64,000 nucleotides of DNA from Candidatus Yanofskybacteria bacterium (GTDB lineage: Bacteria > Patescibacteriota > Minisyncoccia > 2-02-FULL-40-12 > GWA2-44-9). The notes beneath the pieces were generated by a model that saw only the letters and a list, made by a program, of their open reading frames with translations, was not told the DNA's origin and did no database searches. The translations under genes were made by a program, and so were the position numbers. Location: the NCBI GenBank assembly GCA_020847715.1, contig JADLBM010000021.1, forward strand, positions 800 through 64,799, given 5' to 3'. How positions within the stretch are numbered: position 1 is the stretch's first letter; each line of letters starts with the position of its first letter. Below are positions 5,742-27,899 of this stretch, one piece after another.

Positions 5742-5748
5742 GACGAAA

Positions 5749-6366: not shown

Positions 6367-6370
6367 ATGA

Positions 6371-6727: not shown

Positions 6728-6742
6728 GTTCGAGTATCAGCG

Positions 6743-7291: not shown

Positions 7292-7302
7292 AGTGTTCAG
7301 TG

Positions 7303-7701: not shown

Positions 7702-7712
7702 AGGGGAAGAAA

Positions 7713-7898
7713 TTACCAGGACGACTTACGGATACCCGGCAGCAGTCCTTGGTTGGCCAACTCGCGGAAACAGATACGGCACAGCTGAACCTTTCCGATG
7801 TAGTACCGTGCACGGCCGCACTTGAAACACCGATTCACCTTTCGGCTGCTGAACTTCGGCTTCTTATTGCTGCGTGCAATCGTAGAGGTCTTTGCCAT
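7713..7898 (-). CDS. rpsN: 30S ribosomal protein S14, zinc-binding type Z (61 aa)
   Basis: [20 protein letters not shown] zinc ribbon. Confidence 0.92.
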
Positions 7899-7907
7899 GA
7901 TGGTGTT

Positions 7908-8447
7908 CTATTTCTTCAACGGGAAACCGAGCAGCGTCAGCAAGGCAATGCCCTGCTCGCGGTTCTTCGCCGTTGTCGTGATGGTCACCTGCATACTGAA
8001 AATATCTTTCACATTCTCCACATTCACTTCCGGGAAAATGCTGTGCTCCTTGATGCCGACATTCAAGTTTCCTTCGCGATCGAAGTTCTTGGGATCGATA
8101 CCGCGGAAGTCCTTGGAAAGCGGGAGGGAAATCGTGATGAAACGCTCCAAAAAATCCCACATCCGCTTGCCGCGCAGCGTCACCGCAACGCCGACCGGAG
8201 TGCCCTGGCGCAGCTTGAAGCTCGCAATGGACTGCTTGGCCAACCGGCGCGAAGGCTTCTGCCCCGTGAGCACCGCGAGGTCGCGCTCGACGCGCTCGAT
8301 CGCTCCGGCATCCTTCGCCATGCGGCCGACGCCAACGTTCACCGTGATCTTGGTGATGCGCGGAACCGCCATGACATTGGCGATACCAAACTCCTTCCGC
8401 AGCGCGGGGAGGACCTTGGTCGTGTAGTTGTCGTGGAGACGTGACAT
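7908..8447 (-). CDS. rplE: 50S ribosomal protein L5
   Basis: MSRLHDNYTTKVLPALRKEFGIANVMAVPRITKITVNVGVG. Confidence 0.93.
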   Translation of the reverse strand: MSRLHDNYTTKVLPALRKEFGIANVMAVPRITKITVNVGVGRMAKDAGAIERVERDLAVLTGQKPSRRLAKQSIASFKLRQGTPVGVAVTLRGKRMWDFLERFITISLPLSKDFRGIDPKNFDREGNLNVGIKEHSIFPEVNVENVKDIFSMQVTITTTAKNREQGIALLTLLGFPLKK

Positions 8448-8491
8448 GGAATGCTTAGTATACTTACTTTTTATCTTCTGTAAAGTTCTCG

Positions 8492-8803
8492 CTAGATCTG
8501 AATCTTCGTTTTGCGATCGATACGGACCTTTGTTTTGCCGTCCGCACCCAGCTGCCAGCCAACGCGAGCCGCCTTGCCGGTATCCTTGCTAGCGACCGCC
8601 ACCGCAGACGCGCTGACCCACCGCTCAACGGAAACGATCTGCCCTTTCGAGCCCGCCTTCCGAGGACGCAGGTGGCGCTTCACCATGTTCAGCCCTTCCA
8701 CAATGACCTTGTGTGCCTTCGGGTCCGTGCGAAGAACCTTTCCGGTCTTTGCCCGGTCCTTTCCGCTCAACATGATAACAGTGTCGCCTTTCTTGATCTT
8801 CAT
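8492..8803 (-). CDS. rplX: 50S ribosomal protein L24
   Basis: MKIKKGDTVIMLSGKDRAKTGKVL; listed ORF is over-extended at its 5' end. Confidence 0.9.
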   Translation of the reverse strand: MKIKKGDTVIMLSGKDRAKTGKVLRTDPKAHKVIVEGLNMVKRHLRPRKAGSKGQIVSVERWVSASAVAVASKDTGKAARVGWQLGADGKTKVRIDRKTKIQI

Positions 8804-8813
8804 GGTCTGGTGG

Positions 8814-9179
8814 TTAGACAAGTTCCTGCGCCAACGACGCAATGGTCTGGAATCCCTTCTCCTTGATCTCGCGCGGGATTGGACCGAAAATACGACCGCC
8901 CTTCGGCTCCTTGCCGTCAACGATGACGACCGCATTGTCATCGAACCGTACGATGGTCCCGTCGGCGCGGCGCCACGGAGCCTTCTGACGAACAACGACC
9001 GCTTTCAAAATATCCTTCTTCTTGACCGCCTTGCGTGGTTCAGCGGACTTCACCGAGACCACCACGATATCCCCGATTTGGGCATACCGACGGCGGGACC
9101 CGCCGAGCACCTTGAACACGCCTACGCGTTTGGCGCCGGTGTTATCTGCAACAGTGACAATGGATCGAAGCTGTAACAT
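8814..9179 (-). CDS. rplN: 50S ribosomal protein L14
   Basis: MLQLRSIVTVADNTGAKRVGVFKVLGG. Confidence 0.94.
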   Translation of the reverse strand: MLQLRSIVTVADNTGAKRVGVFKVLGGSRRRYAQIGDIVVVSVKSAEPRKAVKKKDILKAVVVRQKAPWRRADGTIVRFDDNAVVIVDGKEPKGGRIFGPIPREIKEKGFQTIASLAQELV

Positions 9180-10082: not shown

Positions 10083-10733
10083 TTATGCGTTCTTCTCTGC
10101 TTCAAAGACTTCACCCTTGTAGACCCACACCTTGATACCGACGGTACCGTAGGTGGTGTGTGCGGTCGCGCGGACGAAATCCACATCGGCACGGAGCGTC
10201 TGGAGCGGGAGCGAGCCCTCTTCCATATGCTCAACGCGTGCGATCTCGGCGCCGTCCAAGCGACCCGACAACTGCAACTTCACACCCTTCACGGCGCGAC
10301 TCGCCATCACCTTCTGGATGGTCATCTTCATGATGCGGCGGTACGGCGTGCGGCGTTCGATCTGGTCCACAATGTGCTCGGCAATAACCGCAGCAGAACC
10401 GTCCGGATTCTTCACTTCCTGCACTTCGAGCTGCAACGGCACCTTGAACTTGAGCAGCTTGCCAAGTTTCTGGTTAAGCTCCTGAATGCCTGCACCGCCG
10501 CGGCCGATAATGAGACCCGGGCGAGCGGAGTTGATGGTCACGCGGATGGCGTTATTGCCACGCTCGATGAGAATGGAATCAACGCCCATGTTCTTCAGGC
10601 GCTTGCCCAAGAACTCGCGAATGGCAAGATCATCCTTCAAGAACTGCGGATACTTGGCGCCGCCAAACCAGCGAGACGACCAGTCCCTGTTGATGCCCAA
10701 CCTCATTGATACCGGTGATGCTTTCTGTCCCAT
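10083..10733 (-). CDS. rpsC: 30S ribosomal protein S3
   Basis: MGQKASPVSMRLGINRDWSSRWFG, KH domain. Confidence 0.93.
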   Translation of the reverse strand: MGQKASPVSMRLGINRDWSSRWFGGAKYPQFLKDDLAIREFLGKRLKNMGVDSILIERGNNAIRVTINSARPGLIIGRGGAGIQELNQKLGKLLKFKVPLQLEVQEVKNPDGSAAVIAEHIVDQIERRTPYRRIMKMTIQKVMASRAVKGVKLQLSGRLDGAEIARVEHMEEGSLPLQTLRADVDFVRATAHTTYGTVGIKVWVYKGEVFEAEKNA

Positions 10734-10742
10734 GGTTGAAGT

Positions 10743-11147
10743 TTAGAGGTTCGAATCAGTTGCCGCCTTCTCGCTTGCCTTCTTCTTGGTGGTCGCCTTC
10801 TTCGGCTTTGCCTCGCCGCCTTCCAGCACGACGCATACGCGGCTCGTTTTCTTCTCGATTGGATTTGCGCGGCCGAAGCCCTTCGGTACGAACCGCTTGA
10901 GCTTCATGCCCTCATCCACCCACATATCCTTGATGACCAAGGTCTCGGGGTCGAGCTTGAAAGTGTTTTCCGCGTTCGCAACCGCTGAGCGCAAGAGCTT
11001 CACGAGGTGCTCGCTGGAACGCTTCGGCGCATGGGTAAGCTGATCGAGCGCGACCTGCACGTTCTTGCGCTTGATGAGGTCGACCAGCAGCCGCACCTTG
11101 CGAGGCGCGATGCGGAGTCCGTTCAGTTGTGCCTTCACCTGGGTCAT
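10743..11147 (-). CDS. rplV: 50S ribosomal protein L22
   Basis: MTQVKAQLNGLRIAPRKVRLLVDLIKRKNVQVALDQL. Confidence 0.92.
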   Translation of the reverse strand: MTQVKAQLNGLRIAPRKVRLLVDLIKRKNVQVALDQLTHAPKRSSEHLVKLLRSAVANAENTFKLDPETLVIKDMWVDEGMKLKRFVPKGFGRANPIEKKTSRVCVVLEGGEAKPKKATTKKKASEKAATDSNL

Positions 11148-11155
11148 GCGATTGA

Positions 11156-11506
11156 TTATTTCTTAGCGGGCGCAGCGGCGGCAGGCTCTTTCGCGGCCTT
11201 GGCTGCATCGATCTCCTTCTGCTTCTGAGCGGCTTCCTGCTCCTTCTGCATGCGGCCTCCGTGGCGTGCGAACTTCTTCGTATGCGCGAATTCGCCCAAC
11301 TTATGACCGACCATATCCTCAGTGACCAACACAGGGATGTGCACCCTACCATTGTGAACACCGAAGGTAAAGCCAATCATTTCCGGAATAATGGTGCTGG
11401 CGCGGGCCCACGTCTTGATAATCTTCTTCTCGCCCGCCTTCAAGGCAGACACCTTCTTCAGGAGCTTCGCATCCACATACGGGCCTTTTTTGAGTGATCG
11501 CGACAT
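11156..11506 (-). CDS. rpsS: 30S ribosomal protein S19
   Basis: [19 protein letters not shown]...[27 protein letters not shown]. Confidence 0.94.
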
Positions 11507-11512
11507 GGTGGA

Positions 11513-12340
11513 TTATTTGATGCGGCGGCGCACGATGAACTTCGCCGATTTCTTCTTCGGATTGCGCGTCTTGTGTCCGCCGGTCGTCTTGCCGTGCATC
11601 GTCTTCGGGCGGCGCGTACCACGACCCTGGCGGCCTTCTCCTCCACCGTACGGGTGGTCAACCGGGTTCTTGGCGGTACCGCGAACCTTCGGGCGACGAC
11701 CGAGCCAGCGGGAGCGTCCGGCTTTTCCAAGGGCGATGGTCATGTGTTCGGCATTGGACAGCTGCCCAATGGATGCATAGCACTCACCGAGCACGAGGCG
11801 CATCTCGGACGACGGAAGCTGAACCTGCGTAAGCGCGCCGTCATGGGCGAGCACCATCGCACCGGTCCCTGCGGAGCGGACGATGAGTCCTCCCTGTCCG
11901 GGACGGAGCTCGATGTTGTGCACCAGCGTACCCTGCGGTACATTGCGCAGCTTCATACGATTGCCAGGGCGGACCGGAGTCTTCTCCGCGGTCACCACGG
12001 TATCGCCAACATTCAATTCCTGCGGCGCAAGGATGTAGCGCTTCTCCCCATCGCGGTAGTTCAGCAAGGCGATGCGCGAAGTGCGGTTCGGGTCGTACTC
12101 GATAGCGGCGACCTTCGCCGGAATGTCGAATTTGTTCTGCTTGAAATCGATCCAGCGGTAGAGACGCTTCACGCCGCCTCCGCGATGCATCGAGGTGACA
12201 CGGCCCTGATTATTGCGACCAACCTTGCGGTGGCGGCCACCCGTGAGGGATTTCAGCGGCTTGGCAGACTTCGTCAGATTGCTGAAGTCGTATCCCTGTG
12301 CGTGCCGACGCGACGGAGTTGTAGGCTTGTAGTCTTTCAT
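11513..12340 (-). CDS. rplB: 50S ribosomal protein L2
   Basis: GRNNQGRVTSMHRGGGVKRLYR...GTAKNPVDHPYGGGEG. Confidence 0.95.
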   Translation of the reverse strand: MKDYKPTTPSRRHAQGYDFSNLTKSAKPLKSLTGGRHRKVGRNNQGRVTSMHRGGGVKRLYRWIDFKQNKFDIPAKVAAIEYDPNRTSRIALLNYRDGEKRYILAPQELNVGDTVVTAEKTPVRPGNRMKLRNVPQGTLVHNIELRPGQGGLIVRSAGTGAMVLAHDGALTQVQLPSSEMRLVLGECYASIGQLSNAEHMTIALGKAGRSRWLGRRPKVRGTAKNPVDHPYGGGEGRQGRGTRRPKTMHGKTTGGHKTRNPKKKSAKFIVRRRIK

Positions 12341-12343
12341 GGA

Positions 12344-12727
12344 TTACGGCTGTGCTTGCGCGATAGACTGACCGCTCTTGAGCGTGACAATCGCCTTCTT
12401 GATACCGCCCTTGGTGCCACGATGGCGACCAAGCGTGATGCTCTTCTTCGGCAAGCGAACCATGTTCACGGACACGACATCAACCTTGTACCCGCGCTCG
12501 ACCGCGTCGCGCACCTCGGTCTTTGTGGCACGACGGTCAACTTCGAATGTGTACTGGTTCATGGCAAATCCGCGAGCACTCTTTTCGCTCACGAAATACC
12601 GCTTGAGCACGGAGCCCACCGGAGCGGTGATCGTGGGGGTCGCAATCTCCTTCACCTCAGTGACCTGAGATTCGGATACCGGAGCCTTCGACTGCTTCTT
12701 TGATTTTCCAAAAAGGTTGAGCGCCAT
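12344..12727 (-). CDS. rplW: 50S ribosomal protein L23
   Basis: VLKRYFVSEKSARGFAMNQYTFEVDRRATKTEVRDAVERGYKVDVVSVN. Confidence 0.9.
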   Translation of the reverse strand: MALNLFGKSKKQSKAPVSESQVTEVKEIATPTITAPVGSVLKRYFVSEKSARGFAMNQYTFEVDRRATKTEVRDAVERGYKVDVVSVNMVRLPKKSITLGRHRGTKGGIKKAIVTLKSGQSIAQAQP

Positions 12728-12731
12728 GGTG

Positions 12732-13391
12732 TTAGCTCTTCAATGAAAAGGTCTTCTCTGCGGCCGCAAGCGCTCCGGCGGTCGTAAGCACGAACGGGAA
12801 CGCCAGCACCGTCAACGCATTCAGGTCCTGTGCACGGATGGTGGTAACTTCCGGAAGGTTCGCGAACGCGCGCACCGTCGGTGCGTCATCCGAGCCGCCC
12901 GGCAGAACAACCAACACGCGACCGCCTGCGCGGTAGCCATCGAATCCCTTGGTGTGAGACGCGATAAGCGCAGCAGCGTCCTTGGTCTTGCCCGTCGAAA
13001 CCGCAAGCGCATCAACAACACGGAGGTGTCCGTCGCGGACACGCGCGGACAGCACAACGGCAAGCGCCTTACGAGCGGCAATCTTGGTGATGGTCTTGGA
13101 AAAGTTGACGTCCTTGCTGGGTCCATGCGCCGCACCGCCACCGATCCAAATCGGAGAGCGGATAGAACCATGCCGTGCACGGCCGGTGCCCTTCTGCCGC
13201 CACGGCTTTTTGCCGCCGCCGCGAACTTCGGAGCGCGTCTTCGCATGGGCGAGCACCTGTCGCTGATTGCTCATCTGCGAGGTCGCAACCTGCCAGACGA
13301 GGTCTGCGTTCATCGGCGCGGCGAACAAACGATCGGACACGGTGGCCGTTTCGTCTGCTTTGCCCTTCGCGTTGTAGACCTTGATATCCAT
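12732..13391 (-). CDS. rplD: 50S ribosomal protein L4
   Basis: GGGKKPWRQKGTGRARHGSIRSPIWIGGGAAHGP. Confidence 0.93.
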   Translation of the reverse strand: MDIKVYNAKGKADETATVSDRLFAAPMNADLVWQVATSQMSNQRQVLAHAKTRSEVRGGGKKPWRQKGTGRARHGSIRSPIWIGGGAAHGPSKDVNFSKTITKIAARKALAVVLSARVRDGHLRVVDALAVSTGKTKDAAALIASHTKGFDGYRAGGRVLVVLPGGSDDAPTVRAFANLPEVTTIRAQDLNALTVLAFPFVLTTAGALAAAEKTFSLKS

Positions 13392-13420
13392 GAGAGTTAC
13401 GAGGTAGTGAGCCTGCCGAA

Positions 13421-14050
13421 CTAGGCGGTGATTTCAAGAATGGCGCCCTTCGCACCCGGAACCGCACCCTTCACGGCGAGCACACCGGCTTCGGCATCGA
13501 CAACGATGACCTTCAAGCCGCGCATACTGATGCGCTCCTGACCGTCGCGTCCCGGACCGCGCGTACCCTTCAGTGTGTGCTGAGGGAAGCGCTGACCGAT
13601 GGAACCGACGTGGCGAAGCACATGGTGGTGGCCATGGGATGCAGGAGCACCGTGGAATCCGTGGCGCTTCACCGCACCTGCAAATCCCTTTCCCTTCGTA
13701 AGCCCCGCGACCTTTACCACATCGCCAGGAGCAAAGATCGAGACATCGACGGAATCGCCGACGGCCAAATCCTTACCACCGACCGCAGTTGCCTTGAATT
13801 CGCGCGTCCAACGGAAGCTCCCCAACTCCTTGAAATGCCCGCGGAGACCCTTCCCGAGGTTCTTTGCCTTCTTCGTGCCCGCACCCAGCTGAACGGCCGC
13901 ATAGCCATCCTTTTCAACGGATTTGACCTGCGTGACCACATTCGGAGCGGCCTGAAGCAGGGTAACCCCAATGAGCTCGCCTTTTTCGCCATACACCTGG
14001 GTCATCCCCAGTTTAGTGGCAAGCATGAATTTTGCGGGTGTCTTTGCCAT
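13421..14050 (-). CDS. rplC: 50S ribosomal protein L3
   Basis: MLATKLGMTQVYGEKGELIGVTLL...KGKGFAGAVKRHGFHG; exact start (14050 or 14026) uncertain. Confidence 0.9.
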   Translation of the reverse strand: MAKTPAKFMLATKLGMTQVYGEKGELIGVTLLQAAPNVVTQVKSVEKDGYAAVQLGAGTKKAKNLGKGLRGHFKELGSFRWTREFKATAVGGKDLAVGDSVDVSIFAPGDVVKVAGLTKGKGFAGAVKRHGFHGAPASHGHHHVLRHVGSIGQRFPQHTLKGTRGPGRDGQERISMRGLKVIVVDAEAGVLAVKGAVPGAKGAILEITA

Positions 14051-14282
14051 AAACAACACAAATTCCGGCCTAGCCGGAACATCGGCGAAGCCACGTGCGA
14101 GGGTATCCATTGAAGGACCTGCCGCACGGTCGGGGTGTCTTAGGCCGGTTCTAACTCCTGCCGGAAACCCCTGCTGGGAAGCCGGTCGCCCGGCTCAAGT
14201 CAGCCCAACGACTATACACGAACCCCCAAAAGAATGCAAGCCCCCAACAAAAAGCCTGCGCAATGCGCAGGCTGGAGACGGT

Positions 14283-14663
14283 TCACTCCCGATAGCAGGT
14301 CGTGACCGTGTTGCAGATGCCCCGTCCGCCGACGCCGCTCGCTCCGCACCAGTAGTTCCACGCTTCCGACGAGGACCACGTCGCGGGCGTGATGCCCCCA
14401 CCCGACGTCCACCCCGAGTAGCCGACCGTGGCGCCCTGCATCCCGCCCCGCGGGTCCTCGACCGTGCAATAGCCGGTGAAGCCCTGCTCCTGCAGCAATT
14501 GCGGCCCCGCCACCGTACCGCAATGGAAGAGTCCACGCCTGCTGCAGAACTTGAGGCCCGTGTCCTGCTCGGGCGCGAGCGGGTTCAAGCAGCTCCCCGC
14601 ACCCATCAGGATGGGACTCAACACCACGACCATCAACGCGACGTATCGCTTCGCCCGCTTCAT
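14283..14663 (-). CDS. hypothetical secreted/lipoprotein-like Cys/Gly-rich small protein (8 Cys)
   Basis: N-terminal signal MKRAKRYVALMVVVLSPILMGAGSC; first gene of the island between rplC and rpsJ. Confidence 0.5.
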   Translation of the reverse strand: MKRAKRYVALMVVVLSPILMGAGSCLNPLAPEQDTGLKFCSRRGLFHCGTVAGPQLLQEQGFTGYCTVEDPRGGMQGATVGYSGWTSGGGITPATWSSSEAWNYWCGASGVGGRGICNTVTTCYRE

Positions 14664-14720
14664 TACCCCTCCTCAGCGAATATGAGAACCGACTGTACCA
14701 CTGTTCTTACTTATTGTCAA

Positions 14721-14790
14721 AACAAAAAAGGACCGGCGCGTGTGCGTCGGTCCGGAGAGCGGACTAGCGGAAACGGAGACCCCAGCGATG
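14721..14790 (-). repeat. direct repeat copy 1 (about 68 bp) carrying the gene 3' end plus a terminator hairpin GGACCG...CGGTCC plus T-run
   Basis: aaaaaaggaccggcgcgtgtgcgtcggtccggagagcggactagcggaaacggagaccccagcgatg is near-identical to 15451..15519. Confidence 0.8.
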
Positions 14791-14979
14791 CTCTCGGGGA
14801 CACCTGAAGAACTCCCGCAACACGGCCGGGAGAGCGATGGGACCGGCGAGCACGTTGAGGCACAGAGCGAGCCACTTCACGTAGCCGCCATCCTGGCAAA
14901 AGCCCACCGTGATGATGTGATTGACCCACGCCCACAGCAGGTAACCGGTCAACGGCCACAGCAGCCACCACAGATTCAT
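14764..14979 (-). CDS. small hydrophobic membrane protein, paralog of 15493..15738 (shared C-terminal HRWGLRF)
   Basis: 71 aa, 2 predicted TM; 3' end lies inside the 68-bp direct repeat. Confidence 0.5.
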   Translation of the reverse strand: MNLWWLLWPLTGYLLWAWVNHIITVGFCQDGGYVKWLALCLNVLAGPIALPAVLREFFRCPREHRWGLRFR

Positions 14980-15075
14980 GCTTCACCTCGGTTTCATAAT
15001 ATCACGGTTTCTTGATTCGTCAAATACAAAACAAAACCCCTCTCGGCCGAAGGGCATAGAGGGGTCGGGAACGGG

Positions 15076-15393
15076 TCAGTGGGTGAACGCGTAGTGCAGG
15101 AACATGACGAAGTAGACGACGAGCATGCCGCTCGCGAATCCGCCGGCTAGCGGATGCGGCGCGACCCAGTTTTCGCAGTAGGGATGCCCGGGAGACCCTC
15201 GGTCAGTCAACTCCTGCCAGCCCGCACCGAAGTTCGTGTGACTGGCGGTGAAGAACGCGATGAAGAACCCGAGGAACAGAACCCAAAATGGCAACGGGGT
15301 CTGGCGACACCACGCCTCATGGGCGGCCCGGAACCCCAGCACGAAGATGAGGCCCAAGCTGAACGCGAACCACCACAGTTTCTCAAAGGACAT
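15076..15393 (-). CDS. hypothetical membrane protein (about 105 aa, 3 TM)
   Basis: MSFEKLWWFAFSLGLIFVLGF...; hydrophobic profile. Confidence 0.45.
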   Translation of the reverse strand: MSFEKLWWFAFSLGLIFVLGFRAAHEAWCRQTPLPFWVLFLGFFIAFFTASHTNFGAGWQELTDRGSPGHPYCENWVAPHPLAGGFASGMLVVYFVMFLHYAFTH

Positions 15394-15450
15394 GGCACAA
15401 CCTCCTGATTCGATTATACTCCATTTTATTAGAAAAGTCAATGCCCATCG

Positions 15451-15519
15451 CGAAAAAAGGACCGGCGCGTGTGCGTCGGTCCGGAGAGCGGACTACCAGA
15501 AACGGAGACCCCAGCGATG
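15451..15519 (-). repeat. direct repeat copy 2 (terminator plus gene 3' end)
   Basis: matches 14721..14790 with 3 substitutions. Confidence 0.8.
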
Positions 15520-15738
15520 AGCTGCAGGAAAGTTGCGGGCTTCGGCCGCCGTGTTAAAGATGGCAATCGGCCCGGCAAGTATCCCGACCAGCAGCGCGAA
15601 AACCTTGACGTGCCGCTCCACCGCCCCACCCGCTCTGAGCGGATACACTCTGTTGAGCATGTAATTGAACCACGCCCAACCCAGAATGCCCAACACGGCC
15701 CACACGAGAACCAACCCGGACACCAGCCATGGATTCAT
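15493..15738 (-). CDS. small hydrophobic membrane protein, paralog of 14764..14979
   Basis: 81 aa ending AAHRWGLRFW. Confidence 0.5.
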   Translation of the reverse strand: MNPWLVSGLVLVWAVLGILGWAWFNYMLNRVYPLRAGGAVERHVKVFALLVGILAGPIAIFNTAAEARNFPAAHRWGLRFW

Positions 15739-15834
15739 CGAACCCTCCTAAAATAAATCATACACCTCTTATCTAGTTGTGTCAATGTCCAACAAAAACC
15801 CCTCGCGGATGCGAGGGGTCGGGAGCTTCATGTT

Positions 15835-16074
15835 CTACAGCAGAGGCACTCCGCAGTCGACGCAGCGCCCGCACTCGCTTACCGGACCATCGTGGTCGCA
15901 AGCCCACTTGCCCACCTCGTCAGCGGCGATGTACTTCGTGTCCTTACTTCCTGCAACATCCACCTTGAGGACAAGGCACCTCGTTCCCGCCCTGACAACG
16001 TACGTCGCGGGCGCTAAGCGTTTCGCTCCGCCCGTACTGGAAAGCCACCGCGTATCAACCCTCTGCTGTGCCAC
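15835..16074 (-). CDS. hypothetical small protein with C-terminal Cys cluster (CDHDGPVSECGRCVDCG)
   Basis: 79 aa; SD GGAGGT 4 nt upstream of ATG. Confidence 0.45.
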   Translation of the reverse strand: MAQQRVDTRWLSSTGGAKRLAPATYVVRAGTRCLVLKVDVAGSKDTKYIAADEVGKWACDHDGPVSECGRCVDCGVPLL

Positions 16075-16107
16075 TGTTCTACCTCCGCCAGCTGGATGAT
16101 GCGCGCA

Positions 16108-16332
16108 TCACATTAGCGAGTTCACCAAAAGAGCACCGATGAAGAGGACCAGCACCGCGAGAAGTACCTCCGCGAACATCGTGGCGCTAATCACACGGTC
16201 GCGCTCCTCCCGCCTCGCCTGCCATTCTGCGTGCATACCGTCCCAACACGCACCACAGTAGTTGCTTCGGTACCGCGCGAAGGCGTTGCACCCCTTGCGG
16301 ATGCACTTCTTCAACTGCTCACCTCTCACCAT
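16108..16332 (-). CDS. hypothetical zinc-finger plus C-terminal TM anchor protein (74 aa)
   Basis: CIRKGC-x10-CGAC then hydrophobic tail; SD GGAGGT 5 nt before ATG; probably co-transcribed with 16374..16661. Confidence 0.45.
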   Translation of the reverse strand: MVRGEQLKKCIRKGCNAFARYRSNYCGACWDGMHAEWQARREERDRVISATMFAEVLLAVLVLFIGALLVNSLM

Positions 16333-16373
16333 GCGAACCTCCGGAAAGACTCTGCCGCGCTTTCCAAGAACTT

Positions 16374-16661
16374 TCAGTGCCTCTGATTGCGGTCTCGATG
16401 CTGTGCGTAGATGGCGGGGATGAGCTCATTGAGGACTCGCTCGCGAGGCACCTCGGCAAGACTCCGAAACCCGTGCTCCGCAATCCAGAGCTGAACCTCG
16501 GGTTCGCGATTGAGCCGAGTATAGAGAGCGCCCGCGTCCTCCCGCACACCCGCGGCGAACGTCGTGAGCACGCGATGGACGCCGGTACTGATGCGATCCA
16601 CGAACTCTTCGACAACAGCAAGATCTGGGGCGACATCGTCTGGGTCTTCGCCATCCGCCAT
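16374..16661 (-). CDS. hypothetical small acidic protein (96 aa) behind conserved leader copy 1
   Basis: MADGEDPDDV...; listed ORF over-extended; conserved promoter/SD leader immediately upstream. Confidence 0.5.
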   Translation of the reverse strand: MADGEDPDDVAPDLAVVEEFVDRISTGVHRVLTTFAAGVREDAGALYTRLNREPEVQLWIAEHGFRSLAEVPRERVLNELIPAIYAQHRDRNQRH

Positions 16662-16710
16662 GTTCCACCTCCGCCGCGAGGTATACCACATGCGGCATAC
16701 CACCGCAACG
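16650..16710 (-). promoter_or_regulatory. conserved promoter/leader copy 1 (TTGCGG-17-TATACC then GGAGGTGGAACATGGCGGATG)
   Basis: about 60-nt near-identity with copy 3 (17636..17695) including the first 3 codons; core shared with copy 2. Confidence 0.65.
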
Positions 16711-16792
16711 CAGCAACGCATTGGAGCGTCCTCGCGCCCATGCGCTCGGAAACGAATGGCCGGCCATCCCCGCAGAAAACGAGCGGCCATTC

Positions 16793-16822
16793 GAAAAAAA
16801 GGCCGTCGGAGGGACGGCCGGC
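16793..16822 (-). terminator. terminator after 16823..17177 gene
   Basis: GGCCGGCCGTCCCTCCGACGGCC hairpin then TTTTTTT on minus strand. Confidence 0.6.
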
Positions 16823-17177
16823 CTATCGAACTTCCCGCACTCGCCCATCCTGGATGACCAGCTTCTCCTTCTTGAGCAGAACGGAATTCAGCATGCAGGA
16901 TTCATCCCACCCAGGACTGTCTCCCGGTCCCTGTGCGCTGTAGCGATCGCGACTCATCTTGCCGCATGCCATGCACACCCACACCTGCCCCTCCGGAGCG
17001 ATACGAGGGCCATCGCTCACCGACCCGCTTACCGGATCGGCCGATGAAAACACCGGCGCCATCCGCGCATCGGCAGCAAGCAGGCGCGCTCGCAGAACTT
17101 CCGGATGTCTCCCCGCCAGATGTGGGAATGAATTGATGAGCTCCCCGAACTCCTCCTTGCAGATGCTACACTTCATG
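16823..17177 (-). CDS. hypothetical Cys-rich zinc-ribbon-like protein (118 aa)
   Basis: MKCSICKEEFG...CMACGKMS...; preceded by leader copy 2. Confidence 0.5.
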
Positions 17178-17200
17178 CTCCACCTCCGCCGCAAGGTATA
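17165..17200 (-). promoter_or_regulatory. conserved promoter/leader copy 2 (GTGGTATACCTTGCGGCGGAGGTGGAGCATG)
   Basis: shares a 31-nt core with copies 1 and 3. Confidence 0.6.
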
Positions 17201-17217
17201 CCACGGTCTGCGTAAAA

Positions 17218-17250
17218 ACAAAACCCCTCGTGGCAACGAGGGGGTCATAT
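17218..17250 (-). terminator. terminator after 17256..17647 gene
   Basis: CCCCTCGTTGCCACGAGGGG then TTTTGTTTTT on minus strand. Confidence 0.65.
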
Positions 17251-17255
17251 AGTGT

Positions 17256-17647
17256 TCAGGTGCGGCGGTGCTCGGCGTTGATCTTGCCACAGAGCGTACA
17301 GACATCCATCGGCCGACCACACCCCACTCGATGCACATGATATTCGTCACAAAATGGCGGCTCGTTAAACTTGCCCGGACACGGCGGCGAGTAGTGCCGC
17401 GCCAGATCCGGAACCAATGCATTGGCGCTCTTGGCCCACTCATCGTCAGGATGCTGGTATGCCGCCTGCGCCAAGAGCCCAAGCGCTTCCTCCGCTGCCG
17501 TATATACGGCGTCCCAATCACAAACAAGCGCACCAACATCGATGTGGAGCAGCCCAACAAGCTTCATGAGCGTCTCGCGAGCTTGTCTGCCGAAGAACTT
17601 CTCGTCCCCGAGTTTCGCCTCAAGTCCGCCTTTGGCATCCGCCATGT
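17256..17647 (-). CDS. hypothetical protein with C-terminal Cys/His-rich zinc-binding region (130 aa)
   Basis: MADAKGGLEAK...CPGKFNEPPFCDEYHVHRVGCGRPMDVCTLCGK; preceded by leader copy 3. Confidence 0.5.
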
Positions 17648-17695
17648 TCCACCTCCGCCGCAAGGTATACCACATGCGGCATGCCACCGCAACGC
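17636..17695 (-). promoter_or_regulatory. conserved promoter/leader copy 3
   Basis: TTGCGGTGGCATGCCGCATGTGGTATACCTTGCGGCGGAGGTGGAACATGGCGGATG. Confidence 0.65.
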
Positions 17696-18017
17696 GGACG
17701 AGCGGCCATTCGTTCGAAAGAAAAAGGCGGAAGTGTTTCCACTTCCGCCTAGACCCAGCTTCGGGCCCTGCTCTACCGCCAGTGCTTGGGGTTCTGGCAG
17801 TGCCCCTCACCCTTGAACCAGCAGTTGACGAAGTCGTCCTTCACGCACTTCAGGAACGTGATGAAACGCTCGCGCACGGCTTATATCCTCCTGACAGGAT
17901 TCCACATCCCGTCTGGAACCATGGTACACTATTTTATTGAATAAGTCAATACCCCAAAAGTCAATCCCCGCCCACGGGATGATTACTACCCATTATCCAC
18001 ATTGAGGGGAGAAAAAC

Positions 18018-18356
18018 ATGCTCGTACAATCTATGCGTACCAAGTGGGCGTTGAAAACGAAAGAGAGCCGCACGCGAATGCGACTCGGGAATTCTTTCGT
18101 GAAGCGAGGATTACTGCTTCTGGGAAGACACCAGAAGAATAGCACGCCTGACACCTGCGCAAAACAAAACTGTGCACATATGGCAATAAAAACCATAAGG
18201 CAAATACGGCCTGTCCGCCCAATCAAGCCGATTGAGCGGATGCAAAATATCCAGACACTCCCCCCGATTGGGGCGAGGAAATGGATACGGGCGCATTGGC
18301 GTTACGACTACATCTCCCGAAAATGGGAGTGGGTCTTAGGCCACTGGTCACGTTAA
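18018..18356 (+). CDS. hypothetical basic protein (112 aa), only plus-strand gene in the island, within the low-GC patch
   Basis: SD GAGGGGAG before ATG at 18018; followed by a perfect 13-bp hairpin at 18368..18398. Confidence 0.4.
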   Translation: MLVQSMRTKWALKTKESRTRMRLGNSFVKRGLLLLGRHQKNSTPDTCAKQNCAHMAIKTIRQIRPVRPIKPIERMQNIQTLPPIGARKWIRAHWRYDYISRKWEWVLGHWSR

Positions 18357-18367
18357 GCCCAGACAAC

Positions 18368-18398
18368 ATCACAAACAGCTCACCGAAGTGAGCTGTTT
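18368..18398 (+). terminator. perfect 13-bp stem hairpin (ACAAACAGCTCAC / GTGAGCTGTTTGT), likely terminator
   Basis: inverted repeat directly after stop of 18018..18356; weak T-run. Confidence 0.45.
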
Positions 18399-18463
18399 GT
18401 GTGCCACTATACTAGGATATCGCTTCAATGGTGGCGGGGATGTGGCAAGAGAGGGGGTGAAAT

Positions 18464-19027
18464 CTACTGACCATCGGTAGGGGCAGCTTTTGCTTTTTCC
18501 TGCTCATCAATGTCCTTCACGTTCCAGCCCTTGGTGGTGATGATTTTGTCTCGGAGGTAGATACCAAGCACTTCAGTAACATCACTGAACTCAAGACCTT
18601 CTTTGAAAAGGTAGTCCTTGATTGCCGTCATGCGGTCGTCTGCCTCAAGCGTAGCAATGACCTTCTTTGATGCTTCCTGTACATCGTAGGATGTCTTTAC
18701 ATTCTCGCCATCAACCTTGCTCAGAAGGTCGGTGATATTATCGTCAACAAACTTCCGACCACCGCTTTCGGTAAGCACTTTCTCTCCACGTTCCGTGAGG
18801 GAGATAGGGCTTTTCTTTTTCGTGAGAGGGCCTTGATTGTCTAGCATCGTCTCACACTTTATTGTTTTGTCGCGAATTTCTTTTACTTCCTTTTGCACCC
18901 CTTCAATATCCTTTTCGGCTCGGTCAACCTTAGACTTATATTGACCGATGGTGAATACGGCTGACAACCCACCGACGATTGCGGCAAGCAGGAGGTTTAC
19001 TATGAAGAAAATCATCTCTTTATCCAT
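18464..19027 (-). CDS. hypothetical N-terminally TM-anchored coiled-coil protein (about 187 aa) in low-GC patch
   Basis: MDKEMIFFIVNLLLAAIVGGLSAVF TM then charged coiled coil; local GC about 45% versus about 60% window average. Confidence 0.5.
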   Translation of the reverse strand: MDKEMIFFIVNLLLAAIVGGLSAVFTIGQYKSKVDRAEKDIEGVQKEVKEIRDKTIKCETMLDNQGPLTKKKSPISLTERGEKVLTESGGRKFVDDNITDLLSKVDGENVKTSYDVQEASKKVIATLEADDRMTAIKDYLFKEGLEFSDVTEVLGIYLRDKIITTKGWNVKDIDEQEKAKAAPTDGQ

Positions 19028-19247
19028 GAACGTATGGTACAAGATATTTGGGGTATTTGAAAGTATCATTCCGATGTTCATGTCTTAATTGCTGCCAGGG
19101 AGTACTCACCATATTTTTTTAGTCTGAGTGAGCGCTCGATCCAGTCACCCAGCGGCCCCGCGCTTGGCCGCAGATGAGGCGATGAAATCCGGCTTCGGCC
19201 CCGACGAGGTCCGAGCGATTTCCTTTCGTGCAGGTCGAGAGCTAGCG

Positions 19248-19649
19248 CTAGAAAGTATTTTCAAACTCTCCATCCTTGCAGAGCGCATTTTCCCGCCACC
19301 AGAAAGATAATCCTCCACCGTTCAAAGGGTAAAGTTCGTCACATTTCGCATCGCTTTTTGGTTTCGGGTCGCTATACCTGATGTAGCACGTGTCGTTTCC
19401 CTCGCCATACCGCCAACCCTTCACATTGCTCCACTTGGCACCCTCAGTCTTGTAAATCGCCAAGCAATCATTTCTTCTATCAGCAGCATATTTCTTATTA
19501 GCCTCTTCGCTCTTTCTATTTTGGTACCCCTGATACGAAGCAGAGGCGACGACTACCACTAGAAGTATTGATAGCAGTATGCCGACCCTAAACCAATTGT
19601 GACCCAGCCAGCGTAATGCGCGAGAAAGTATGCGTTTCATCATACCCAT
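19248..19649 (-). CDS. hypothetical TM-anchored secreted-domain protein with 4 Cys (133 aa)
   Basis: N-terminal TM VGILLSILLVVVVASA, then Cys-containing domain; lower GC. Confidence 0.45.
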   Translation of the reverse strand: MGMMKRILSRALRWLGHNWFRVGILLSILLVVVVASASYQGYQNRKSEEANKKYAADRRNDCLAIYKTEGAKWSNVKGWRYGEGNDTCYIRYSDPKPKSDAKCDELYPLNGGGLSFWWRENALCKDGEFENTF

Positions 19650-19805
19650 ATGTTACACCTACTGCCTTTCGCTACAATAGATTCGCGAGTCCGGATGCTC
19701 CGCGATGCGCGAGCGAGAAGCGCAGTGAGCCGTACTACCGATACGGCGAGCGCGCATCGCAGCGGCAACGAAGCGGGGCGCCGGAATCGCGAATCCCCCA
19801 GCAAA

Positions 19806-19835
19806 AGCAAAAGACCCCAAACGGGGTCTTTTGCT
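19806..19835. terminator. bidirectional rho-independent terminator (GACCCC-AAAC-GGGGTC flanked by T/A runs)
   Basis: terminates tuf-rpsJ transcript on minus strand; U-run present on both sides. Confidence 0.7.
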
Positions 19836-19892
19836 TTGCCATGAGTACTCGGTAACCCTTCGACTTCGCTCAGGGTAATTCGCCCTAGCGAA

Positions 19893-20219
19893 TTACATTT
19901 TGATTTCGATGTCGACGCCCGCAGGAAGTGCCAGATTGGTCAACGACTCGATAATCTTCGGAGTCGGACCGTGGATGTCGATGAGGCGCTTGTGGATGCG
20001 CATCTCGAACTGCTCACGGGAGTGCTTGTCGATGAACGACGCGCGGTTGACCGTGAACTTCGAGATTTCGGTCGGAAGGGGCACCGGACCTACCGGCTTG
20101 CCACCGTACCGCTCGATGGTATCCGCGATTTGCCGCGCCGACTTGTCGATGATTTTGTTGTCGTATGCGCGGAGCTTGATGCGGATGCGCTGCTCCTGTT
20201 TTTCGGTTTTCTTGGCCAT
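19893..20219 (-). CDS. rpsJ: 30S ribosomal protein S10
   Basis: [40 protein letters not shown]; its stop overlaps a 20-bp palindrome TAATTCGCCCTAGCGAATTA. Confidence 0.94.
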
Positions 20220-20242
20220 GGCAAAGAACGAATGAGGTGTGA

Positions 20243-21439
20243 TTACTTGATGATCTTCGTAACCGCACCGGCGCCGACCGTCTTACCGCCTTCGCGGATA
20301 GCGAAGCGAAGCTTCTCATCCATAGCGACAGGGGCGATCAGCGTTACCTTCACGGTCACCGTATCACCAGGCATGACCATCTCGGCACCCTCCGGGAGGA
20401 ACACCTCGCCGGTCACGTCAGTGGTGCGGAAGTAGAACTGCGGCTTGTAGCCCTTGAAGAACGGCGTGTGGCGTCCACCCTCTTCCTTCGTGAGCACGTA
20501 GATTTCTGCCTCGAACTCGGTGTGCGGGGTGATCGAACCCGGCTTCGCAAGCACCTGTCCGCGCTCGACATCCTCTTTCTTCAGACCGCGGATAAGGATA
20601 CCGGCGTTGTCGCCCGCCATACCTTCGTTGAGCGACTTGTTGAACATCTCGATGCCCGTGATGACGGTCTTCTGCGTCGGGCGGAGACCGACGACCTCGA
20701 CTTCATCGTTCACCTTGCACATACCGCGCTCGATGCGTCCCGTGACGACCGTGCCGCGACCTTCAATGGTGAAGATGTCTTCCACCGGCATGAGGAACGG
20801 CTTGTCGGTTTCGCGCTTCGGCTCGGCGATGTAGCTGTCGCAGGTGTCGATGAGCGTCTTGACTGCCTTCACGTACTCGTCGTCCTTCGACTTGCCCTCG
20901 AGCGCCTTCAGACCGGAACCGCGGATAATCGGGGAATCGGTGAAGCCATACTTGGCAAGAAGGTCCTTCAGCTCAGCCTCAACGAGGTCGAGCATTTCCT
21001 TGTCATCAACCATATCAACCTTGTTCAGGAAGACGATGATGTACGGAACACCAACCTGCTTGGCGAGCAGGATGTGCTCGCGGGTCTGCGGCATTGCGCC
21101 ATCGGTGGCGGCAACGACCAGGATTGCGCCGTCCATCTGGGCGGCACCCGTGATCATGTTCTTGATGTAGTCAGCGTGTCCCGGAGCGTCGATGTGTGCG
21201 TAGTGGCGGTTCGGGGTCCAGTACTCCGAGTGGTGGAGCTGGATGGTGATACCGCGAGCCTTTTCCTCCGGAGCCTTGTCGATGGAGTCGATGGCCTCAA
21301 CGCGAGAACCATAGCCCTCATCCTTATACATATCCAGCACGTGCAGGATGCCTGCCGTGAGGGTGGTCTTGCCGTGGTCAACATGGCCGATGGTGCCGAT
21401 GTTAACGTGTGGCTTTGTACGATCGAATGCGTCTGCCAT
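20243..21439 (-). CDS. tuf: elongation factor Tu
   Basis: [30 protein letters not shown]. Confidence 0.97.
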
Positions 21440-21564: not shown

Positions 21565-21849
21565 CTATCGCTGTCCCTCCCCTTGCGCCTCCTCCTGGGC
21601 TATCTGCTCTCGCAATGCCAGGATCTCTTTATTCAATCGCTCGAGCACCGCATCCTGCGCTTGCGCCGCGGGCCGGCTTTTCGGCCACCGAGCGGCGATG
21701 GGCACCTCCTCCGACGCTTCGGTCGGAGCCCCGACCGCTTCGCGTCGGGGTTGCCCCAATTCCCGTACGACGAGCGGTAAGTGCCCCTCCTCGACCAGCA
21801 CCACCGAGCCGTACTCCTTCACCAATTGTCGCACCTGCTTAATATCCAT
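21565..21849 (-). CDS. hypothetical 94-aa protein inserted between fusA and tuf
   Basis: MDIKQVRQLVKEYGSVVLVEEGHLPLVV... then charged helical tail; ATG 2 nt after fusA stop (possible translational coupling). Confidence 0.4.
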   Translation of the reverse strand: MDIKQVRQLVKEYGSVVLVEEGHLPLVVRELGQPRREAVGAPTEASEEVPIAARWPKSRPAAQAQDAVLERLNKEILALREQIAQEEAQGEGQR

Positions 21850-25985: not shown

Positions 25986-27230
25986 CTACTGACCTATGCA
26001 GACCCCGCGGAATAGATATACGTCATCAATAGCTTCAGTGCATTCATACCGACAAACGTAATCATCCACATTGCCGTCAAACGCGGCTCTGCAAACCATG
26101 CTTCTTCCCGTACACTGCGTCGGCGGCTGGTACGGGTAATTATATTTCATCGCTTGAGGGGAATTCAACCCGTAGAGGCAGAACGAGCTGGGGCCTACTC
26201 TTGCCGGATAAACACTTTCGCTCACCGTCAAGTCTTCGCCAAAAACTGCCACGACACGACCGCTTCCCCCCACATGATTCGGATATGACACTGCGGGACC
26301 CCCGATACCGCCGTACCCCGTGTATGGGGGATAGTAACCGGCAGAATAATCAACATCCGCCGTCCTCACCGGACTCCGCCCAGAAGCGGGAAAGGCCTGA
26401 AACACAACATCGTCTCGATATGACGGATTCACATATGCTGTGCCACCGCCTCCTCCACCTCCCATGCCATTCACATAGTTCGGATATCCGGAACCGAGCG
26501 ATCCGCCGCCTCCGCCGCCACCATACCCTTTTCCGCCACTACCGGCCAAATAGTACCCCAAATTTCCGCCGGTAAAGGAAAAGTTCGAACCACCTGCTTG
26601 ACCGGGCGATGTCCCAGACCCGCCTGCGCCACCAGCGTTCAGAGCGGCGCCAATACCACCGCCAGCGGTTTGCCCGCCTGCAACGCCATTCCTTCCATTA
26701 CCTCCCCCGGCAAAAGCACCACCTTCGCCACCGTGTCCAAGCTGAGTAAATCCTGCAACCGCACCTGCTCCACCTCCGCCGCCGGGAGCAACAACCATGT
26801 ACTGATTATGCCCATCGCTCCAGACATAGGAATAATGGCCTCCCCCACCGACGCTATACTGCTGCCCTCCGGCAAGAAGTCTGAGGGTCTCTCCGGGAGT
26901 AACGTTCAGCTCTGCGATAACATGTCCGCCTCCTCCACCATTAGCAGAATCTACAATGCCTACCAAACCGCTACCGACAGGAAAGTAGGTATTTCCACCG
27001 TCTCCCCACGCCTTAATCTTAATCTTTGTGCATCCTGCAGGAACCGTCACATCTATCCATGAGTGGCTTCCGTTATCATTCGGCACACCATTAATACTGT
27101 GCCGTGATACGGAGCACCCATCCGCCTTCACCACATCTGACGTGAATGCACCCAGCTGGAATGCCACGACACCGGCGATGAGAACGCCTAAACCAAGAAC
27201 ATACAGACCTTTTCGTACAAACAGTTTCAT
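25986..27230 (-). CDS. hypothetical glycine-rich secreted/cell-surface protein with Cys-rich C-terminal domain
   Basis: N-terminal TM/signal, long GGGGG/GxG low-complexity core, 8 Cys in last 70 aa. Confidence 0.6.
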   Translation of the reverse strand: MKLFVRKGLYVLGLGVLIAGVVAFQLGAFTSDVVKADGCSVSRHSINGVPNDNGSHSWIDVTVPAGCTKIKIKAWGDGGNTYFPVGSGLVGIVDSANGGGGGHVIAELNVTPGETLRLLAGGQQYSVGGGGHYSYVWSDGHNQYMVVAPGGGGGAGAVAGFTQLGHGGEGGAFAGGGNGRNGVAGGQTAGGGIGAALNAGGAGGSGTSPGQAGGSNFSFTGGNLGYYLAGSGGKGYGGGGGGGSLGSGYPNYVNGMGGGGGGGTAYVNPSYRDDVVFQAFPASGRSPVRTADVDYSAGYYPPYTGYGGIGGPAVSYPNHVGGSGRVVAVFGEDLTVSESVYPARVGPSSFCLYGLNSPQAMKYNYPYQPPTQCTGRSMVCRAAFDGNVDDYVCRYECTEAIDDVYLFRGVCIGQ

Positions 27231-27343
27231 AAAAAATACAACGCCTCCAAAGAGGCGCAAATAAAGTTACCTTTCATATGTATCGACCATTGCGACCATT
27301 ATACGCCCGATGATACGAGGGAAGTTGATAAGTCAAAAACGCC

Positions 27344-27793: not shown

Positions 27794-27828
27794 TCGCTCC
27801 GCGACCTGGGAATCAGTCATCACCAATG

Positions 27829-27899
27829 TCGGGCTGCCGGGAATCGAACCCGGTCTACATGCACCCCATGCATGCGTACTACCGGTATACGACAGCCCG
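27829..27899 (-). tRNA. tRNA-Pro (anticodon GGG)
   Basis: hand-folded cloverleaf: acceptor CGGGCUG/CAGCCCG, D-stem GUAU/GUAC, anticodon stem CAUGC/GCAUG, loop AUGGGGU, T-arm CCGGG-TTCGATT-CCCGG, discriminator A. Confidence 0.8.

Follow-up and report, generated by a model that had tools for sequence, protein, structure and literature searches.

A probable flexible-genome hotspot of small cassettes between the S10 and L3 genes of a Patescibacteria species

The 64,000-nucleotide (nt) stretch of contig JADLBM010000021.1 analysed here, referred to as the window, belongs to a metagenome-assembled genome (MAG) of a Candidatus Yanofskybacteria bacterium. On its minus strand the genes follow one another in the order rpsG, fusA, an open reading frame (ORF) of 94 amino acids (aa), tuf and rpsJ and then, past an island of small genes that is the subject of this analysis, rplC-rplD-rplW-rplB-rpsS and on to secY. 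The original prediction, made from the letters of the window, had placed at 14110-19893 an accessory island of about 11 small genes splitting the rpsJ-rplC (S10-L3) junction. The split is confirmed, with some 5.65 kb of non-ribosomal DNA separating the end of rpsJ at 19893 from rplC. The island is real, but its borders have had to be moved to approximately 14241-19892, with conserved sequence shared with sibling strains starting again at 14240, and rplC itself most likely begins at 14050 (MAKTPAKFMLATKLGMTQ), as judged from the N-termini of relatives, and not at the annotated 14110. Small genes do make up the island, but their count rises to 12 supported ORFs, including those of 34 and 79 aa, all on the minus strand and arranged in about ten promoter-to-terminator units. 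In the source MAG the island genes are all annotated as hypothetical (locus tags IT405_03195 to 03235). The nearest relatives of the S10 protein are, without exception, Patescibacteria. In the direction of transcription, the features of the locus are the following (GC3 denotes GC content at third codon positions).

20243-21439, minus strand: tuf.
19893-20219, minus strand: rpsJ (S10), the final conserved gene ahead of the island; an ORF, with Pfam Ribosomal_S10 matched by the identical protein.
19804-19837, both strands: bidirectional hairpin resembling an intrinsic terminator, after rpsJ; 15-nt arms 100% complementary, 4-nt loop, A-run before, T-run after.
19660-19800, minus strand: first copy of a rod-like hairpin, after the rpsJ terminator (covariance model, 122.9 bits).
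19248-19649, minus strand: p133, N-terminal membrane anchor and four-Cys ectodomain, GC3 0.51.
18464-19027, minus strand: p205, anchor, long coiled-coil helix and conserved helical C-terminal domain; start at MDKEM, giving 187 aa.
18370-18401, unstranded: perfect 14-bp hairpin, terminator of p205, possibly common to a convergent plus-strand ORF.
17950-18369, unstranded: unassigned 420 nt, with a doubtful plus-strand ORF at 18018-18356 ending in a weak WXXGXW-like tail (Pfam E = 0.97).
17725-17949, minus strand: p34 unit; promoter-like site 17949-17921, 34-aa Cys-containing ORF 17773-17877, terminator 17750-17725.
17630-17695, 17161-17226 and 16646-16711, minus strand: three copies of a 66-nt leader repeat with promoter and ribosome-binding site (RBS).
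17256-17645, minus strand: p129, cytosolic, Cys-rich C-terminus.
16823-17176, minus strand: p117, N-terminal CxxC...H...H motif and C-terminal 'WDESCML' domain.
16374-16661, minus strand: p95, cytosolic.
16108-16332, minus strand: p74, zinc-ribbon-like N-terminus and C-terminal membrane helix.
15835-16074, minus strand: p79 (79 aa), CxxC motifs.
15453-15785, minus strand: p81 unit; promoter 15785-15757, two-helix membrane protein 15493-15738, terminator repeat D2 15453-15519.
15036-15441, minus strand: p105 unit; promoter 15441-15413, three-helix membrane protein 15076-15393, terminator 15036-15055.
14724-15023, minus strand: p71 unit; promoter 15023-14996, membrane protein 14764-14979 ending in HRWGLRFR, terminator repeat D2 14724-14790.
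14253-14720, minus strand: p126 unit; promoter 14720-14692, ORF 14283-14663, terminator 14253-14273.
14051-14240, minus strand: rplC leader; candidate promoter TTGCAT-N17-TATAGT at about 14236-14208 (by eye), hairpin and U-run at 14080-14062.
13421-14050, minus strand: rplC (L3), the first conserved gene past the island; an ORF, with Pfam Ribosomal_L3 and the N-termini of relatives in support.

The architecture proposed for the island is largely borne out. The predicted bidirectional terminator 3' of rpsJ corresponds to a perfect 15-bp hairpin with A and T runs, and the claim that the island has promoters and terminators of its own agrees with consensus scans, which return 8 promoter-like sites against 3.8 expected from shuffled sequence and 17 terminator-like sites against 6.7, nearly all of them lying on the coding strand and where the ORFs would require them. 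The internal direct repeats that had been noticed comprise the three copies of the 66-nt leader repeat and a 67-nt terminator repeat (D2). Within the former lies a 31-nt leader found three times at one mismatch or fewer, with no occurrence expected. By eye, the leader repeat reads as TTGCGG-N17-TATACC with two palindromes, GGCATGCC and GGTATACC, the second of which overlaps the promoter, and with a GGAGGTG RBS and start codon downstream (GGAGGTG-N5-ATG). As a compact promoter-like module in three copies, it would place three genes under one regulatory input. The leader motif has no exact match in JGI metagenome and IMG/VR contigs, and it appears to be specific to this species. The D2 repeat (97% identity) spans the 3' ends and terminators of p81 and p71, which are paralogues (40% identity), and a single terminator sequence stands at the end of three distinct genes, namely p81, p71 and a gene of 145 aa (p145) in the sibling contig L004. 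Genes p95, p74 and p79 (15835-16661) are probably read as one transcript from the third leader copy, ending at a terminator at 15797-15820, and the remaining island ORFs are single-gene units.

A low-GC patch had also been reported, and GC content does drop to 0.46-0.52 across approximately 17800-19600, as opposed to 0.56-0.66 in the surroundings. Base composition is thus atypical in the rpsJ-proximal 2 kb only, the remaining island being host-like, and the same division is seen in codon usage: GC3 is 0.51 in p133 and 0.53 in p205, versus 0.65-0.88 in the other island cassettes and in host genes. A GC3 near 0.5 in these two genes suggests recent import.

Sibling contigs, cited like all other loci by L numbers, were collected through exact-protein look-up for identical S10 or L3 and are independent assemblies from other sequencing runs. 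Their flanking ribosomal protein genes show 97-99% nt identity to those of the window and the content of the slot differs, so that different genes stand beside 100% identical S10 or L3 in conspecific assemblies, upholding the view of the island as accessory and non-ancestral. On the rpsJ side, L001 and L002 are 98% identical to the window through tuf-rpsJ and diverge exactly at the rpsJ stop codon (19894), beyond which come genes for a NYN nuclease, a type III methyltransferase (PADLOC, 1.2e-93), a REase_III (3.1e-27) and a trypsin-like protease. Both contigs match the window again from 17949, where the p34 unit has its -35 box, and L089, in which the protease is joined to p34 and p129, provides independent confirmation of this joint. 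Positions 17950-18400 of the window hold no remnant of the NYN, Mod, Res or protease genes of the sibling allele. L003 has the terminator and the rod hairpin in common with the window and then a third, unrelated gene. On the rplC side, L005 passes from p95-p74-p79 straight to p126 (95% identical to that of the window) and rplC, without p81, p105 and p71, and L004 carries p95, p74, the 145-aa zinc-ribbon-like gene in place of p79 and p81, then p105 and a p126 allele at 50% identity, without p71, and is 99.4% identical to the window from 14240 onward, that is, in the rplC operon.

The rpsJ-proximal slot exists therefore in at least three alleles and the rplC-proximal part in three arrangements. 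Every allele seen is bordered by rpsJ and rplC, S10 and L3 do not differ between samples at the protein level, and no assembly among those compared has rpsJ directly abutting rplC. The breakpoints (19894, 19680, 17949, 15785/14727, 15489 and 14240) fall on terminator T-tracts and -35 boxes and, together with the terminator common to three genes, they indicate that the island units behave as exchangeable cassettes. The flanks are not uniform either: synonymous divergence from the siblings (L001, L003-L006) amounts to 8-13% in rpsJ, rplC and rpsC versus 0-2% in rplD and rplB, mostly without any change of amino acid, and this unevenness suggests recombination tracts inside the ribosomal cluster.

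Comparison with the siblings also bears on the cassettes as genes. The ratio of non-synonymous to synonymous polymorphism (pN/pS) lies at 0.1-0.3 for p95, p74, p79, p126 and p34 (0.23-0.31 for p34 versus L001/L089; 0.12-0.32 for p95-p74-p79 versus L004/L005), and these low values mark the five as real genes under purifying selection. For p105, 9 non-synonymous changes are counted versus 1 synonymous change. An identical p129 gene occurs in three independent assemblies; it is an ORFan, as a search of 5.8 billion proteins returns only itself.

To place the junction in a wider context, 80 GTDB representatives with the closest S10 proteins were fetched, and about 70 of them extend far enough to be informative. 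In these Patescibacteria loci the S10-L3 gap measures mostly 70-500 nt (427 nt in the closest relative; 160-800 nt among the closest species-level relatives), and none of the island proteins was found in any of the 80 loci. The same gene set is thus not a fixture of the lineage, and no island protein shows homology to a housekeeping family, two outcomes that leave the accessory reading standing. Describing the junction as universally conserved overstates the case: about ten of the roughly 70 species have an insertion at this point, and in L072 the gene cluster is broken at S10-L3. These insertions may be single small ORFs (L009, L034, L059, L085) or longer stretches, of 2.5 kb in L054 and, with assorted genes, of 5.6 kb in L064. 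In L042, a low-GC Patescibacteria genome, at least seven small ORFs follow rpsJ (10145-12681), three of them coding for multi-helix membrane proteins, two for an anchor with a Cys-rich part and two for other products; this cargo is of the same kind as that of the window, with no detectable sequence similarity to it.

In an E. coli-type S10 operon, rpsJ comes first, is co-transcribed with rplC and has the L4 leader before it. The window is not organized in this manner. Here rpsJ starts 23 nt after tuf and is followed by a terminator, and no ribosomal protein leader of Rfam matches 13300-20300, even at E values up to 1. Nor does any other Rfam family match in the island, whether the whole window is scanned at gathering threshold or the island at E up to 1. 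A GC hairpin with a U-run precedes rplC not only in the window but also in L008, L009, L010, L011, L012, L013, L016, L023, L047 and L057; whether the gap is short or long, it is near-identical in some relatives (CCGGCTAGGCCGG in the window versus GCCGGCTAGTCCGGC in L008). The rpsJ terminator and this conserved hairpin before rplC suggest that in this phylum tuf-rpsJ and the genes from rplC onward form separate transcription units, with rplC at the head of its own. Hence, the island would lie at an operon boundary and not at an intra-operon joint. The leader hairpin may be an attenuator, similar in idea to the L4 attenuator of E. coli but placed after rpsJ. In cyanobacteria, plastids and archaea, rps10 likewise stays with the str unit (rps12-rps7-fus-tuf) and rpl3 starts the next one. 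The layout seen here, with a terminator after tuf-rpsJ and a leader belonging to rplC, resembles theirs in that the two units are separable without harm. In those genomes, however, the units lie apart, whereas here they remain neighbours and the gap between them holds strain-variable cargo. The location had been called exceptional, and this too is overstated, given the probable operon boundary, the invasion of about ten of some 70 species and a second insertion, between secY and adk, that is described below. The 94-aa ORF between fusA and tuf (21565-21849, minus strand), with a coiled-coil-like C-terminus, is kept at the same position in L008, L012 and L013 (26-38% identity), unlike the island genes.

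Searches of Pfam, PHROGs and PADLOC with all island proteins gave only sub-threshold noise, and no island protein of the window matches PADLOC at E below 0.001. That the products lack a recognizable family is therefore correct for curated libraries, but four of them do have uncharacterised homologues. The ectodomain of p133 has nine homologues in JGI metagenomes (52-65% identity), one of which overlaps the start codon of a type III restriction-modification (R-M) Mod/Res pair, while others adjoin a toprim protein or a SpoVG and a Schlafen-type gene. The p205 family is larger, with 35 homologues at about 50% identity and a strongly conserved C-terminal domain. Its members are found in phages (beside tail-fibre genes on a 41-kb contig, on two IMG/VR contigs, and in the published Megaira phage MAnkyphage, flanked by recombination genes and a regulator) and in some genomes of the candidate phyla radiation (CPR), including L100. 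In this CPR-like locus (ena:ERZ27256499 k141_5538446, 5323-8844), the S10 cluster ends after rplB and is followed by accessory genes, namely a 152-aa ORF, a sugar transferase and the p205 homologue, before rplJ-rplL. A weak, sub-threshold hint of p205 as a holin or Phage_Gp23 is not relied on.

The C-terminal half of p117 (p117C) holds a motif of about 45 residues, VWVCxACGK...GWDESCMLNSVL, that stands alone in 12 homologues of 66-78 aa. The domain is present in 33 IMG/VR viral loci, very large phage contigs among them, and in phage-like arrays of tightly packed small ORFs with dUTPase, exonuclease and methylase genes. The fourth product, p126, is a secreted or lipoprotein-like protein with a signal peptide and seven Cys, and belongs to a narrow family of secreted proteins of about 120 aa with six invariant cysteines. 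The family reaches beyond the CPR, with members in a Longimicrobiales MAG and in a genome that has genes of the LysR and MFS types. Neither p133 nor p126 has relatives in IMG/VR. The p126 family alignment was too variable for a viral profile scan. In none of the fetched loci do other island proteins accompany homologues of p205, p117C, p126 or p133. Two of these four uncharacterised families have confident structure models without a match in the PDB. The AlphaFold2 model of p205 reaches a predicted local distance difference test (pLDDT) score of 87 and its fold matches are generic coiled coils only, and profiles of the p117C and p205 families give nothing significant against PDB sequences.

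Taken together, these observations make it probable that the rpsJ-rplC gap is a flexible-genome hotspot, occupied by a mosaic of small, mostly autonomous promoter-ORF-terminator cassettes. Co-existing strains would acquire, shed and swap such cassettes through homologous recombination following DNA uptake. The highly conserved ribosomal genes would presumably anchor the exchange on the outside, and the promoter/RBS and terminator modules that recur within the island would do so on the inside. The contrast in synonymous divergence between rpsJ and rplC, on the one hand, and rplD and rplB, on the other, is consistent with such use of the ribosomal genes. The insertion would be tolerated because tuf-rpsJ ends in a terminator and a 3' hairpin and rplC has its own promoter and leader hairpin; with rplC in a unit of its own, no operon is broken. 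The cargo seems to come from a mobile gene pool. In this strain, the rpsJ-proximal low-GC slot encodes two membrane-anchored proteins with homologues associated with phages or mobile genetic elements, and the rplC-proximal part contains cassettes of host-like GC for small membrane, secreted disulfide-rich and zinc-ribbon-like proteins. Their role is most likely one of strain-specific phage defence or superinfection exclusion and of envelope or surface interaction, and not of translation. Elsewhere in the window, three consecutive plus-strand ORFs at 51741-55545 have prepilin-type N-termini (GFTVVETLIGLAI, GFTLIELLVGIAL), which suggests a type IV pilus or pseudopilin cluster and, with it, DNA uptake as a possible route of cassette exchange.

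Several points weigh against this interpretation. The promoters and terminators are predictions from consensus matches, and substitution counts are small, with at most 21 in any comparison of island genes. No sibling haplotype is complete from rpsJ to rplC, the alleles having been pieced together from short-read contigs that break at repeats. The p133-p205 segment, p81 and p71 are recorded on this MAG contig only and their linkage is without independent support, the sole further support being L088, a 100%-identical short contig, probably from the same sample, that reaches 18081. No recombinase, integrase, att repeats or tRNA is present in the island, so that we infer the route of acquisition, and in the window there is no defence gene recognized by PADLOC, which makes the defence role of its own cargo a matter of association with neighbours elsewhere.

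The original prediction had likened the island to toxin/immunity cassettes, and on that view the cell would export p126 and p133 as toxins or signals, with p71, p105 and p81 as the matching immunity proteins. A secreted six-Cys protein does adjoin small membrane proteins, its alleles are only 50% identical between strains with 99% identical flanks, p105 shows the excess of non-synonymous changes noted above and the membrane genes are polymorphic in presence. Nonetheless, L005 has a 95% identical p126 without p81, p105 and p71, which contradicts an obligatory immunity pairing, and in L004 the divergent p126 has p105 as its only companion among the three. Pfam, PADLOC and PHROGs reveal no domain of a toxin, of an immunity protein or of bacteriocin export or processing, and the p126 homologue in L106 is solitary among metabolic genes, with no small membrane neighbour. 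The resemblance does not therefore hold up, and we regard this explanation as unlikely.

Much the same standing can be given to a decayed prophage or integrative element, whose early-region or moron genes would survive as the small genes of the island. The occurrence of the p205 family and of the p117 C-terminal domain in phage contigs, the low-GC patch and a unit architecture reminiscent of phage morons, a concept set out in PMC3594210, would all fit such an origin. But the island contains no integrase, no structural, replication or packaging gene or remnant thereof, and no ORF above 205 aa; it has no flanking direct repeats or tRNA, and GC3 is host-like in most cassettes. Moreover, variation proceeds cassette by cassette, through several independent alleles, and not as one element that is present or absent, making a prophage a doubtful source for the island.

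An artefact of assembly or binning, with foreign or repeat-collapsed DNA misjoined between rpsJ and rplC, is very improbable. It is true that the 66-67-nt repeats of the island are break points of other assemblies and that p133, p205, p81 and p71 come from a single contig, but L004 and L005, from other samples, join island cassettes directly to rplC, L001-L003 join rpsJ to island alleles, L001 and L089 join the alternative allele to p34 and p129, and no assembly has rpsJ next to rplC. Most joints are thus backed by independent contigs. Least credible of all is a vertically inherited extension of the ribosomal operon with small CPR-specific translation or ribosome-associated proteins. In its favour are the site itself, within the ribosomal cluster, the host-like codon usage and purifying selection of most cassettes and the conservation of the fusA-tuf ORF in relatives. 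Against it, island content varies among strains whose S10 and L3 are the same, none of the 80 other Patescibacteria loci has the genes, and the products are membrane, secreted or phage-related.

The flexible-hotspot reading has precedents. Flexible islands are known at fixed hotspots between core genes, as in the hypervariable islands of streamlined marine bacteria. The rpsJ-rplC island shares with them a fixed spot, conserved core flanks, strain-variable content, no need for a dedicated mobility gene and a cargo enriched in defence, envelope and unknown small genes; atypical base composition is confined to its rpsJ-proximal 2 kb. It differs from typical flexible islands in its flanks, which are rpsJ and rplC inside the ribosomal supercluster, and in its very small single-gene units with common promoter/RBS and terminator modules. 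In Patescibacteria, genomic islands carrying R-M systems have been predicted with IslandViewer, the rpsJ-rplC site not being described among them (PMC12455944). Compared with defence islands, the sibling allele of L001 (NYN, type III R-M and protease) and the p133 homologue in a type III R-M operon are points of likeness, but the 12 products of the window match no PADLOC model; by association, they may nevertheless be defence genes.

The units are also akin to phage morons, genes inserted into phage genomes together with a promoter and terminator of their own (PMC3594210). Predicted promoter- and terminator-like signals bracket most of the island ORFs (consensus matches, at about twice the shuffled expectation). 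As in morons, the units are gained and lost whole, with breakpoints at unit borders, and two of their products have phage-contig homologues. Unlike morons, they reside in a bacterial chromosome between ribosomal genes, and there are no phage genes in the island or its flanks. Tandem, strain-variable small single-gene cassettes with hairpin-forming junctions further recall integron arrays. Membership in that class was rejected, as neither an integrase, within the array or next to it, nor imperfect repeats of the attC type were found and the cassettes have promoter-like sites of their own; in contrast to integrons, the hairpins and T-runs resemble ordinary terminators, and the integrase negative covers the island and its flanks. 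The island is, in our view, of a familiar kind, a flexible genomic island with moron-like cassettes, in an unusual place, a probable operon boundary within the ribosomal cluster of a CPR bacterium.

Ribosomal gene clusters are taken as the most stable, vertically inherited part of the genome, and both CPR phylogenies and quality checks of MAGs are built on them. In the species studied here, a member of the Patescibacteria, the gap between S10 and L3, and probably that between secY and adk too, would instead be a site of strain-level exchange of mobile cargo. Contigs break at S10-L3 because of internal repeats and of alternative alleles between strains, and concatenated ribosomal-protein markers may include recombinant flanks, as the synonymous divergence of rpsJ and rplC versus rplD and rplB indicates. 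More generally, the island offers a compact set of candidate genes for phage interaction and envelope functions in a group whose small proteins are almost wholly uncharacterised, and the rod hairpin and the rplC leader hairpin are candidates for new regulatory RNAs of CPR ribosomal operons.

The rod-like hairpin after the rpsJ terminator has a second copy after secY, next to another accessory insertion.

3763-3901, minus strand: rod-like hairpin, second copy, after secY.
1806-3964, minus strand: second accessory insertion, between secY (3965-5275) and adk (1071-1805).
3343-3681, minus strand: ORF of 112 aa in this insertion.
2836-3267, minus strand: ORF of 143 aa.
2022-2660, minus strand: ORF of 212 aa, Lys-rich tail.

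The hairpin measures about 140 nt and consists of a central CCGTAC-loop-GTACGG, a CT-rich core and a variable outer stem. A covariance model (R1) built from four copies finds it at the same two positions in sibling strains (L001 605-744, L003 618-760, L004 12387-12525) and, in other species, after rpsJ in L009 (6541-6684, 70.7 bits) and directly after secY in L036 (12855-12952, 29.6 bits). When six copies are aligned, pairing extends to 95.8% of cells, as opposed to 28-45% in slid controls, and compensatory changes are seen in 16 of the 28 pairs; the sequences are few, and the alignment is one fitted to the model. Folding is better than in shuffled sequence for three of four copies (z near -3), and Rfam has no match. 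The ordinary reading is an RNA structure at the end of ribosomal transcription units, which makes the hairpin a candidate new structured element marking ribosomal-operon ends.

In the secY-adk insertion, the 112-aa and 143-aa proteins are paralogues, both ending in ...YELGK. The latter is found also in a sibling MAG (IT406_00575), and exact-protein look-up for this island returned one short contig only. Both accessory insertions begin just past a copy of the rod hairpin. A bolder and rather unlikely idea is that the hairpin acts as a landing site for cassette capture, through recombination at a structured DNA or RNA element with the help of a trans-encoded factor, in an integron-like loading of small, phage-derived and self-expressed genes into the CPR ribosomal cluster that would need no integrase nearby. 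A weaker version of it is that several of the small membrane and Cys-rich proteins, those of the p205, p133 and p117C families, would be new single-gene factors of anti-phage defence or superinfection exclusion. The locus would gain in significance should the hairpin take part in cassette capture, or should the small proteins turn out to be new phage-interaction factors.

Beyond the ribosomal cluster, a minus-strand ORF of 424 aa (25986-27260), near a tRNA-Pro (27828-27899), has a signal- or anchor-like N-terminus, a GC3 of 0.48, below that of its neighbours, and no PADLOC match; it may be another imported gene beside a tRNA. The usual place of a tRNA-Ala/tRNA-Ile pair is in the spacers of rRNA genes. 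No rRNA genes were detected anywhere in the window, and its tRNA-Ala(TGC) and tRNA-Ile(GAT), at 58434-58647, are divergent and lie 65 nt apart.

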